A DNA stretch of 64,000 bases from Candidatus Bipolaricaulia bacterium (lineage in GTDB: Bacteria > Bipolaricaulota > Bipolaricaulia > UBA7950 > UBA9294), in assembly GCA_049643905.1 (NCBI GenBank), contig JBARQW010000100.1, positions 7,115-71,114 of the forward strand, written 5' to 3'. Below the pieces are notes generated by a model. It was not told the DNA's origin and did no database searches. It was given only the letters and a program-made list of their open reading frames with translations. This document shows positions 9,157-64,000 of this stretch, piece after piece; position 1 is the stretch's first letter; each line of letters opens with the position of its first letter. The translations under genes and the position numbers were made by a program.

Positions 9157-10236
9157 ATGCGAGCTAGACGAAGGATCCACGAGCTCATGCTGCTGGCGAT
9201 CGCGGCCTGTACGTTGACGGCGGCGCTCGGGGGCTGTTCGCTCTTTCTCGACCATGAAGCAGTGATTGACGTCGACGTGGTGGAAGGTGTTGTCCCGCTC
9301 ACGATTCGATTCGACGGATGTCGGTCGACGGGGAGCAGCGGGATCGAATCATACCGCTGGCGCTTCGGGAACGGAGACGAGTCGTTCGATGCAAGCGGGA
9401 CGTACACGTATCTGCACGCGGGGAGCTTCCCGCTGACGCTCACCGTTCGAGGCTTCGACGGCGAGACGAGGACAACGTCCGTGCAGATCGAGGTGAAGGC
9501 GTGCATCTGGCTCGCAGATGCGAGTCTCGGCAAGGTCTACAAGCTGGGTTTGGATGGTCAGCTCGTCACCGAGTTCGATGCGCCTGCAGCAAGCCCACAC
9601 GGGGTTGCGATCGTCGAGTCGGGAGGCGCATGGCGCTTGTACGTTGCCTGTCAGGGGGGCGGGTTTCCTGGCATCTACAGGATCGATCCGGGGACGGGAA
9701 CCGTGGTGAGCGAACTTCCGGCCCCGGCTCAAGCTCCGCTTAGCCTCGCGTACGGCGGCGATGCTCCGCGACGGGTCTGGCATGTCGACGGGACCAGCCG
9801 AAAGATCTATGAACTCAATCCGGGAGATCTGCTCGTGCTTGGCTCTTTCGGGTCGAGCTACTTCTACGCTACGGGGCAAGTCGCCGAGATCGGTCTGTTG
9901 CGTGCGCCGGCGGGATTGGCCTGGACGCGCGAGGAGCCGACCCCGGGGGTGCTGTGGTACTTGGAGGGATCGACGCAGCTGTTGTACCGGATTCGAATCG
10001 TCCCTCCTTCAAGCATCCTCGGCGGGCTGCAGCTGACGGTGGACGGAGAAGGCGTTCCGCTTGACCCATCCGTCTTCCCGGTGACGGGCATGGACTGGTA
10101 TGAAGGATACCTGTGGGTGGTCGATGCGGATCATGCTCAGGTCGTTCAGATCGACCCTGCGACAGGACGGAAGACGGGAGCCGCCGTCGTGGAGCTTCCA
10201 GGGGCGAACGCAGCGGGGCTGACGTTCCAGAAGTAA
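9157..10236 (+). CDS. lipoprotein with PKD domain and YVTN/NHL-type beta-propeller-like repeats
   Basis: Signal peptide plus lipobox 'LTAALGGC'. PKD-like 'IRFDGCRSTGSSGIESYRWRFGNGDESFDASGTYTYLHAGSFPLTLTV'. Repeated 'h-Y-[KR]-h-[DN]-P-x-T-G' blades. GGAGG SD 9 nt upstream. Confidence 0.65.
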   Translation: MRARRRIHELMLLAIAACTLTAALGGCSLFLDHEAVIDVDVVEGVVPLTIRFDGCRSTGSSGIESYRWRFGNGDESFDASGTYTYLHAGSFPLTLTVRGFDGETRTTSVQIEVKACIWLADASLGKVYKLGLDGQLVTEFDAPAASPHGVAIVESGGAWRLYVACQGGGFPGIYRIDPGTGTVVSELPAPAQAPLSLAYGGDAPRRVWHVDGTSRKIYELNPGDLLVLGSFGSSYFYATGQVAEIGLLRAPAGLAWTREEPTPGVLWYLEGSTQLLYRIRIVPPSSILGGLQLTVDGEGVPLDPSVFPVTGMDWYEGYLWVVDADHAQVVQIDPATGRKTGAAVVELPGANAAGLTFQK

Positions 10237-59378: not shown

Positions 59379-59731
59379 CAGCGCGCGCCCCCAGCGGACT
59401 GACTGCGGACTGGTACGCCAAACGTCATCACCGTACCTAGAACCTTCACTCGAGAGTTCTTGGTTCGGTTATAGCTGGTACTCCAAAGACCCCATCCAAC
59501 GAAGCGAAGAGACTTGCGGGCCTTTCCTCTCCCCAGTTGCGTACGTATCAAGCGGACGGCCCCCTACTGGATGAGCGACGGGTTCGACCGCGGTGTCGCC
59601 AAGAACGAGGACGTCGGGACCTCATCGATGCCTTCCCGGGTTTCGGTACGACCATTTGGATGGGAGGAAGTGACATTCGGGGCGGCTTCCGCTGTCGGAG
59701 GCTCCGAAAGAGTGAGTGTTCGACCGGCCGC

Positions 59732-62144: not shown

Positions 62145-62612
62145 TTGAGCAAGCTATTGCTGTTCAGCGTCGCAGCGACACTCGTTCTGGGCTTCGGGCT
62201 TGAGTGGGGAGATCAGGAGCAAGCTCAGCCCTACGGTACGCTAGCCGATCAAGGGAGTCCGCAGAGGCTTGAAGCCCCACTGATTGTGTTCTTCGGTAAG
62301 GAGAGCTGTGGAAACTGCCGTCGCATGAGAGAGAGCTTGAGTGGGCTGCTGGCAGAATACCCGACGGCAACAGCCGGGTTCTTCGACATCGAAGATGACG
62401 ACAACCAAGACACCTTTCAGATCCTCCTCGAACACTACGCTCCAGACGGGATTCGCGAGATCTACCCAGTGGTCTTCGTCGGAGAAACCGTGATCGTTGG
62501 GGAAGGGCTCGTCCAGGAGATCGACCTCAGAGTCGCGGTGGAGAACTGCCTCGCCACAGGCTGCTCTTCACCTCTGGACCGCATTGACGCGTCCTACGGG
62601 GGCAGCCAGTAG
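62145..62612 (+). CDS. secreted/membrane-anchored thioredoxin-fold protein (CxxC)
   Basis: Signal/TM 'LLLFSVAATLVLGF', 'LIVFFGKESCGNCRRM' CxxC. TTG start with a GAGGAGGG SD. Confidence 0.6.
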   Translation: MSKLLLFSVAATLVLGFGLEWGDQEQAQPYGTLADQGSPQRLEAPLIVFFGKESCGNCRRMRESLSGLLAEYPTATAGFFDIEDDDNQDTFQILLEHYAPDGIREIYPVVFVGETVIVGEGLVQEIDLRVAVENCLATGCSSPLDRIDASYGGSQ

Positions 62613-62737
62613 GGGGAGCAGACGTTCAATCCCGAGTTTCCGTCGATTAGGGCATGTGGCTGCCTACCGCGTCGATGCAGACAAGACACGCACGCCCTTT
62701 GAACTAACTCCGGAACGGTTTCGCTGGGGCGCGCTCT

Positions 62738-62818
62738 CTGATGTGTGTCCCGCTTCGCGTGGTATGAGTGTCGACCTGTTAGATCCTAGTGTTGGACTGC
62801 AAGACCAGACCGCGCACC
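62738..62818. repeat. direct repeat copy 1 (about 60-80 bp; core GGTATGAGTGTCGACCTGTTAGATCCTAGTGTTGGACTGCAAGACCAGACC)
   Basis: About 85% identical to the copy at 63326-63401. Preceded by a degenerate copy of the 35-bp ATGG..TGCGTCCC..GGG..TTCG module. Confidence 0.75.
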
Positions 62819-63004
62819 CGCGAGCGAAAGGCAGACCCACGCATGTCCCCCACGGCGGAGCCGGTGTCCTTCTGTGCCGGCTGCATCCGACCGAAGCTGC
62901 CTCGAGGGGGTTCCTCACGAACCTCCGCGGGCGCTGCGGCTATACAGCCGATCTTCACCTTCCAGCCCAGCGCCCGCCTTCGTTCATCTTTCCCTGGCCG
63001 GAGC

Positions 63005-63154
63005 CTACTTCTTTGTCAGCTCTTCGCCGCAGCACTTGAAGCCGCCGCAGCGGCAGTCGTCGTCGCTGCAGCTACACTCCGTCTTGACCTCGATCTCGAG
63101 CCCGCAGTAGCTGCATGAATAGATGGCGCCGAGCTTCATTTCCGAGCATTTCAT
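63005..63154 (-). CDS. 49-aa cysteine-rich protein, putative metallothionein-like metal-binding peptide
   Basis: MKCSEMKLGAIYSCSYCGLEIEVKTECSCSDDDCRCGGFKCCGEELTKK: 9 Cys in 49 aa. GGTGA SD 5 nt upstream of the ATG. Confidence 0.45.
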   Translation of the reverse strand: MKCSEMKLGAIYSCSYCGLEIEVKTECSCSDDDCRCGGFKCCGEELTKK

Positions 63155-63274
63155 CGTGATCACCGGGCCCGATTGTACGCGAAACGAGGGCAGTGCTTGG
63201 CGGCAACCAGCCCGCCGACACCTGGTGCCCACCATCGATTGAAGGGACACAAACGTCATTTGCGGCTGCTCCTT

Positions 63275-63401
63275 GAAGAATTATGGTTTGCGTCCCGGGT
63301 TTCGTCCCTTGAGGAATCATGGCATGCGTCCCCGGGGTTCGGCGGTATGAGTGTCGACCTACTAGATCCTAGTGCTGGAATGCAGGACCAAACCCCGCGC
63401 C
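63275..63401. repeat. two tandem 35-bp modules (ATGGtTTGCGTCCCgGGtTTCG) followed by direct repeat copy 2
   Basis: 63275-63310 and 63311-63346 tandem modules, then GGTATGAGTGTCGACCTACTAGATCCTAGTGCTGGAATGCAGGACCAAACC. Confidence 0.7.
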
Positions 63402-63469
63402 TCGTCAAGGAATGCACGCCCGACGGCGGTCCGAACGGAGCTATGTGAATTGCTGCCCGCGCCCACGTA

Positions 63470-63960
63470 GAACAGGTCTTGGGGTCTGGTACCCACTAGT
63501 GTTCTGTCTAGCTCTAGAACTCACCGGTGGCCAACTGCAGCCGAAATCGATGAAGTCCTGTCTGGAAGCTAGGAATTCGTCGATCAACTCATAGCGACGT
63601 GAGTTGTTGATGTGCATCAACAGGATCCATTTCGTCCTCTCCGGGCGCCGGAGAGAACTACTTCAAACACGCCACGGGCTCTTCATCCTGGCATTCGTCT
63701 TGGCAGGAGGTGGTCGTTTAGACTAACTCTAGAAGTGGACCGGCCACTGGGGGCTGGTCACAAGGCTAGGGGGCACGCCATCATGACTTTGCGGTAGTCA
63801 ATCCTTCCGATCCATCATGGTTTCACCTGGTCGATCTGTCAATCGACGCCAAGCTTCGGAAGTTCGTCTCGGCCTAGCATCATAGGTCAATCTAGACGAT
63901 TGTGGGGCTGGTCGGCTACCGGAGGTAATGATCCCGATTCAGGTTCCAGCTCGGGAACAG
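63470..63960. other. non-coding, compositionally anomalous region rich in CTAG and 6-bp restriction-site palindromes
   Basis: KpnI, SpeI, XbaI x3, AgeI, PstI, ClaI, EcoRI, BamHI and HindIII sites within about 420 bp. At least 8 CTAG tetramers, against a handful in the other 62 kb. Nested inverted repeats ATCAACTCA/TGAGTTG and GTTGATG-TG-CATCAAC at about 63578-63625. No ORF with protein-like translation. Confidence 0.6.
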
Positions 63961-64000
63961 TCCACCAGCGGGTGCCAGCGAAGGGCAGCCCCCTTGACCC

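Follow-up and report, generated by a model that had tools for sequence, protein, structure and literature searches.

The last stretch of this 64-kb window (the whole 64,000-nt stretch of DNA analysed here) is crowded with familiar restriction sites and with the tetranucleotide CTAG, and it contains no obvious gene. Is it foreign or synthetic DNA, or does it belong to the chromosome in which it lies? A preliminary description of the sequence had headed the segment "foreign or synthetic" and had offered four explanations: a polylinker or other engineered insert, the edge of a horizontally acquired element, a chimeric contig end, and a non-coding RNA or regulatory region. The fourth of these fits the evidence best, though no Rfam family matches. 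In our reading the terminal segment is probably a native, untranslated intergenic spacer that extends from 63155 to at least 64000. The terminal region behaves like an ordinary, already known kind of intergenic regulatory DNA: it is untranslated, slightly AT-richer, lies between chromosomal genes, carries a conserved −10-like box beside the adjacent gene and contains local palindromes and hairpins. It differs from an ordinary spacer in being long (at least 846 nt) and in its fourfold CTAG excess. A synthetic origin is rejected and chimerism is unsupported. The window holds core chromosomal genes, among them rpoC, infB, a ribosomal-protein/secY/rpsD/rpoA cluster, fpg and a gene for a GGDEF protein. 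The features discussed below are collected in Table 1.

Table 1. Coordinates of the features in and next to the terminal region (window numbering; strand given where a feature has one).
Feature	Position	Strand	Details
58-nt direct repeat, copy 1	62761-62818	+	86% identical to copy 2
Conserved non-coding block	62824-62981	-	Directly 3' of the small gene
49-aa cysteine-rich gene	63005-63154	-	MKCSEMK...CCGEELTKK; GC3 0.86
Non-coding stretch, at least 846 nt	63155-64000 (window end)		Called from codon usage, GC3, stops and protein searches
Likely −10 box, TACAAT	63172-63177	-	17 nt upstream of the small gene's ATG
Tandem duplication, 36-nt unit	63271-63341	+	CCTTGARGAATYATGG..TGCGTCCCCGGG.TTCG; self-alignment 39 against a shuffle maximum of 26
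58-nt direct repeat, copy 2	63344-63401	+	86% identical to copy 1
CTAG cluster	63362-63895		63362, 63369, 63496, 63508, 63514, 63569, 63729, 63766, 63874, 63892
A/G polymorphism	63472		Metagenome contigs stop at 63471 or 63502
Run of well-known six-cutter sites	63488-63856		KpnI, SpeI, XbaI, AgeI, MscI, PstI, ClaI, EcoRI, BamHI, KasI, XbaI, BspHI, HindIII
Four consecutive hairpins/palindromes	63546-63658		63546-63584, 63585-63606, 63605-63622, 63634-63658

We began with the restriction sites, which give the segment its engineered look. All hexamers that the preliminary description listed for the segment were recovered by a script count at 63488-63891: GGTACC at 63488, ACTAGT at 63495, TCTAGA at 63513, 63728 and 63891, ACCGGT at 63523, CTGCAG at 63535, ATCGAT at 63546, GAATTC at 63573, GGATCC at 63623 and AAGCTT at 63851. 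Of the sites reported just upstream, GCATGC (63322) and CCCGGG (63294 and 63331) are present as well, whereas GTCGAC occurs once after 63000 (63353) and not twice. The accompanying estimate of one AT-containing hexamer per 5-10 kb is wrong for several enzymes because this genome has many of their sites (ClaI 47, BamHI 36, PstI 26 and AgeI 21 per 64 kb). The window as a whole contains 19.6 palindromic hexamers per kb on average. Seven further places in the window reach 7 palindromic sites per 70 nt, and 13-15 distinct palindromic sites per 420 nt are also found elsewhere in it. In dinucleotide-preserving shuffles of 63400-63928, the 14 palindromic hexamers present compare with 7.2 expected (p=0.007); without the four CTAG-core sites, 10 remain against 6.8 expected (p=0.15). 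Expressed as density, the region without its CTAG-core sites has 18.9 palindromic hexamers per kb, against 19.6 in coding and 16.6 in other non-coding DNA. Apart from the CTAG-core sites, the pile-up that had been singled out as unusual is thus at background level. It is for the most part an artefact of reading: palindromic hexamers abound throughout this genome, and those that turn up in untranslated DNA of slightly higher AT content happen to be the familiar AT-containing enzyme sites, which gives the impression of a polylinker. As a caution for similar cases, an untranslated stretch in a GC-rich genome with about 20 palindromic hexamers per kb can mimic a polylinker.

In a polylinker, unique sites adjoin or overlap one another within some 50-110 bp. 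The segment shares KpnI, SpeI, XbaI, PstI, ClaI, EcoRI, BamHI and HindIII sites with the pUC/pBluescript multiple cloning site. In contrast to that cloning site, they are scattered over about 370-400 nt with unrelated spacers of 5-100 nt, the XbaI site TCTAGA occurs three times and there is no vector backbone. The longest string in common with the pUC19/pBluescript polylinkers is 8-11 nt. BLASTN against 72,556 plasmids and 50,697 phage records gave no match at E≤0.01, and viral contigs gave no match to the terminal region. With no plasmid or phage match, at most 11 nt in common with known polylinkers, dispersed sites and copies in natural metagenomes (see below), a vector or polylinker was rejected and the heading "foreign or synthetic" could not be upheld.

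Independent copies of the region come from natural metagenomes, which contain 63155-63502 at 99.7-99.9% identity and so speak against a synthetic origin. The contigs were retrieved by exact-protein look-ups of two neighbouring genes and are collinear with the window up to 63502; they stem from ENA ERZ23498717 and from eight Logan runs (SRR28062509, SRR29492072, SRR7066494, SRR28062511, SRR28062872, SRR28062505, SRR28062504 and SRR28062526). The part confirmed in this way already holds the KpnI and SpeI sites and the CTAGs at 63362, 63369 and 63496, so the odd composition straddles the point at which the contigs break off.

All metagenome contigs end at or before 63502, and no independent copy of 63503-64000 was recovered by exact-protein look-ups of three ORFs, in one JGI metagenome or in the viral scan. 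Both observations are what an assembly chimera, or vector or polylinker contamination at the contig end, would produce. The contigs stop, however, either directly ahead of the A/G polymorphism at 63472 or precisely 30 nt beyond it. Ends placed in this way are the mark of an unresolved k=31 bubble and not of a structural break, and we rejected a structural junction at 63471/63502. The CTAG- and site-rich character starts at 63362, within the confirmed sequence, and runs unchanged across 63502, with equal GC on both sides. Together with the dispersal of the sites over about 400 nt, the empty plasmid search and the at most 11 nt shared with the pUC19 or pBluescript polylinkers, this makes a chimeric or contaminated contig end very improbable. 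More generally, the ends of contigs from k-mer assemblies can be SNP bubbles instead of structural junctions. Several Logan contigs begin exactly at 59441 and end at 63502; that starting point is intergenic and lies beside CTAGAAC at 59437.

The preliminary description had seen no protein-like reading frame in the segment, and codon score, GC3 and protein search agree on this point. Codon-usage scores are negative in all frames of 63155-64000. The small ORFs reach a GC3 of 0.39-0.63, where real genes have 0.70-0.86. All six frames contain stops, and no gene opens up when TAG is read as sense. The three longest ORFs (59-61 aa) have no Pfam match, and a search of 5.8 billion proteins with a concatenate of all ORF pieces, including the frames open at the window end, gave no match at E≤10. 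On the basis of the negative codon scores, the low GC3 and the lack of any protein match at E≤10, we rejected a protein-coding gene or pseudogene. The same holds for a possible gene start at ATG 63928 behind GGAGG, which has a negative codon score and whose 24 residues are shared with no database protein; this start is unsupported because the concatenated-ORF search came back empty. A decayed gene for an Iso_dh-family (PF00180) dehydrogenase, which occupies this position in relatives, was also rejected, as tblastn found nothing. Known RNAs did not account for the segment either. Rfam 15 gave no match in 62500-64000, with no family at the gathering score or at E≤10; a lone 10-bit isrG hit (E=4.6) lies elsewhere. 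ARAGORN called no tRNA or tmRNA in the terminal region, and a scan of the loci of relatives likewise gave no support for a known RNA.

The CTAG excess, on the other hand, is a true anomaly of the region and is still without a full explanation. CTAG had been described as scarce elsewhere and present at least eight times at the terminus, and the counts bear this out. A script count gave 48 CTAGs in the 64-kb window, 10 of them within 63362-63892; put differently, the last 1 kb holds 10 and the other 63 kb hold 38. Within 63400-63928 there are 8 where 1.7 are expected from dinucleotide-preserving shuffles (p<0.0005). This corresponds to 15 per kb; coding DNA has 0.45 per kb and the remaining non-coding DNA of the window 2.3 per kb. 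The terminal region is 25 times as dense in CTAG as the remainder of the window. The observed/expected ratio of 0.17 for the window indicates that the genome otherwise avoids CTAG, and in a comparison set of 184 kb from other high-GC contigs no stretch of 530 nt holds more than 3.

We looked at several possible sources of the excess. Among the 19 TA steps in 63400-63928, C precedes 12 and G follows 13. No repeated motif or internal repeat carrying the CTAGs rises above shuffles, save the 36-nt tandem listed in Table 1. Dcm-type deamination was rejected as a source: CCTAG or CTAGG accounts for 5 of 11 CTAGs, roughly what chance would give. Part of the excess may come from the release of coding-region constraints against CTA and TAG; simple release predicts less CTAG than is found, namely the density of the other non-coding DNA and not 15 per kb. 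The remainder may represent TAG-type promoter- or operator-like sites or other binding sites, and the region contains the TAG-type −10-like hexamers TAGAAC, TAGAAG, TAGTGT and TAGCAT. A stronger version, in which CTAG-core sites for protein binding form a dense array, or an undescribed structured non-coding RNA is encoded, continuing in either case past 64000, seems to us decidedly doubtful. If it were true, positive selection would favour CTAG in a genome that elsewhere removes it. As it stands, the excess is a small, real oddity; it would have to recur in relatives, or to coincide with a transcript or binding array, to become interesting.

Four consecutive hairpins or palindromes lie close together in the spacer. 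The inverted repeats pointed out in the preliminary description are present, with CAACTCA at 63585-63591 facing TGAGTTG at 63600-63606 and with GTTGATG-TG-CATCAAC at 63606-63621, but both score within the shuffled range. Each of the hairpins is individually within the chance range too; the one at 63634-63658 has an 11-bp GC-rich stem and a 3-nt loop. Taken together, 63540-63665 folds with z-scores of −2.7 on the + strand and −3.1 on the − strand, 1 of 200 shuffles being as stable per strand. A cluster of GC-rich stem-loops in an intergenic position recalls REP-like palindromes and intrinsic terminators. Unlike these, the hairpins here are single-copy in the 64 kb, mutually unrelated in sequence and devoid of a U-tract. 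Since no U-tract follows them, we did not call a canonical terminator; the single sigma-70-like site and the zero canonical terminators of the region are not above shuffles. The most likely role of the four hairpins would be to stop transcription or insulate neighbouring transcription units from each other, or to serve as palindromes for protein binding between them.

The folding data also bear on a further explanation, namely that the segment is a long structured leader or a structured non-coding RNA of an undescribed kind, perhaps running past 64000, in which CTAG would be tolerated as in rRNA-like structured RNAs. A stretch of this length without an ORF would leave room for it, folding of 63400-63930 on the + strand gives z=−2.3 (0 of 100 shuffles as good), and the z-scores of the four-hairpin cluster point the same way. 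These z-scores are modest, however, and alike on both strands. The segment has no Rfam match even at the permissive threshold given above, no homologous sequence was found, and it has no convincing promoter or terminator. Such an RNA is, in our judgement, quite unlikely.

The reading as a native spacer draws further detail from the small cysteine-rich gene at its left edge. The database version of this gene is an 84-aa product (63005-63259), which is 35 residues too long; the homologues P0002-P0008 share the 49-aa core. The small protein, MKCSEMKLGAIYSCSYCGLEIEVKTECSCSDDDCRCGGFKCCGEELTKK, contains 9 cysteines; its family is very small, with 8 clusters among 5.8 billion proteins. It has no Pfam match. 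With phmmer, its residues 9-48 align to residues 4-35 of desulforedoxin 1CFW with an 8-residue insert, a resemblance that covers the full length but is weak (E=0.31). The hallmark of desulforedoxin is a four-cysteine metal site, VYxCxxCG ... CCGExM. The 8-residue insert of the small protein is itself cysteine-rich. A thioredoxin/glutaredoxin-like gene of 155 aa (62145-62612) adjoins the small gene, and a search of GTDB genomes found no relative with this 155-aa neighbour or with the 3' block pattern described below.

On the spacer side, TACAAT is likely to be the −10 box of the small gene's promoter, judging from its position. It aligns with TAGAAT at 17-18 nt from the ATG in three related loci (L015, L020 and L044), where the flanks diverge. 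In these loci CTAGAAT lies at 9974-9980 (L015), about 603-609 (L020) and 6-12 (L044). Since the −10 position is conserved, the promoter of the small gene would be proximal, and the other 0.7 kb or more would not be needed as a leader. A likely −10 box of the TAGAAT type that is preceded by C also suggests that CTAG can form part of promoters in this lineage. We picture the segment as the spacer that precedes the small gene for a cysteine-rich, desulforedoxin-like protein on the chromosome of an uncultivated bacterium. Its left edge would carry that gene's own proximal promoter, a local duplication would have occurred in its middle, and the spacer may act as regulatory or transcribed DNA.

On the other side of the small gene lies a highly conserved non-coding block, which starts 25-45 nt past the stop codon. 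It is also found in related loci L015 (10175-10330), L019 (300-450), L020 (800-919) and L033 (about 900-1060), with the core GGGCGCTGGGCTGGAA(AG)GGTGAAGATCGG..CAGCGCCCGCGGAGGYTCGYGAGGAACCCCCTCG..GAAGGACAC..., and it exceeds the third codon positions of the small gene in conservation. A 2-nt indel in the block rules out coding. On the gene's strand, its predicted stems are rich in G-U pairs, and the gene downstream of the block is convergent where called (the window, L015 and L019). The block is kept in five close lineages and missing from the distant homologues L043, L044 and L045, and it has no Rfam match. We regard it as a candidate structured RNA in the 3'-UTR. The strain variant L002 carries a two-base substitution at 62879-62880, in the variable stem of the block (GCAGCCGGC to GCAGTGGGC on the − strand).

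The setting of this gene and block differs between genomes. In relatives, they lie between the gene for an Iso_dh-family dehydrogenase and a gene for a peptidase inhibitor of family I42 (PF09394). The different neighbours indicate that the small gene and its 3' block were relocated here as a module. In the window, the two copies of a 58-nt direct repeat flank the gene and its block, and the different neighbourhood in relatives together with the bracketing repeats indicates that the locus has been rearranged. Similarity between the repeats extends to about 62697-62830 and 63271-63410; the 36-nt motif precedes the 58-nt repeat in both places, singly at copy 1 and in tandem at copy 2. The 64-kb window contains no further copy of the 58-nt repeat. 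In integron attC sites, R''/R' cores (RYYYAAC ... GTTRRRY) stand at the two ends of an imperfect palindrome that follows each ORF. Neither copy showed such cores on either strand when inspected, and the repeats are conserved in the centre and variable at the flanks, which is the opposite of attC; an attC origin was rejected.

A rearranged locus is also what one would expect if the segment formed the left border of mobile or horizontally acquired DNA, or were what is left of such DNA; the donor would be one without CTAG avoidance, and the element would continue past the window. Its composition offers some support for this: GC is 0.56 in the last 600 nt against 0.615 for the window, the relative abundance of TA is 0.67 against 0.37 and that of CpG 0.87 against 1.30, and the 25-fold CTAG density adds to the contrast. 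The lower GC stated in the preliminary description is therefore present, but it is mild and common to the window's other non-coding stretches (0.53-0.63). The dinucleotide signature of the terminal region ranks 10th of 635 windows and falls among the other non-coding windows. As an island edge, viewed up to 64000, the segment shows a mild GC and dinucleotide shift of the kind seen in other, native non-coding windows. The CTAG-avoiding Halobacterium salinarum has CTAG-dense, low-GC genomic islands of tens to hundreds of kb with transposons and plasmid genes (PMC7002104), and there a higher CTAG density marks the islands. The segment resembles these islands in its local CTAG rise and GC drop within an otherwise CTAG-avoiding genome; it differs from them in its visible extent of 0.6-0.85 kb, in lacking a mobile-element gene and in its bacterial host.

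Other evidence weighs against acquired DNA. The CTAG count is fourfold over the compositional expectation, which a donor that merely did not avoid CTAG would not give. There is no tRNA or integrase gene in the last 15 kb, no integrase or transposase among the proteins scanned in the window, no phage, plasmid or viral match, and the terminal segment is single-copy in the 64 kb. An IS element or MITE was rejected, as the best terminal inverted repeat scores 19 against shuffle maxima of 20-34 and the ORFs have no homologues. We therefore consider horizontal acquisition unlikely, if somewhat less so than a structured RNA, and retain the native intergenic spacer as the preferred reading. At the opposite end of the window, a 1-kb stretch without protein genes at 1252-2270 contains three tRNA genes (Arg-CCG, Ser-GCT and Ser-TGA), and its dinucleotide signature deviates from that of the window as strongly as the signature of the terminal region does.
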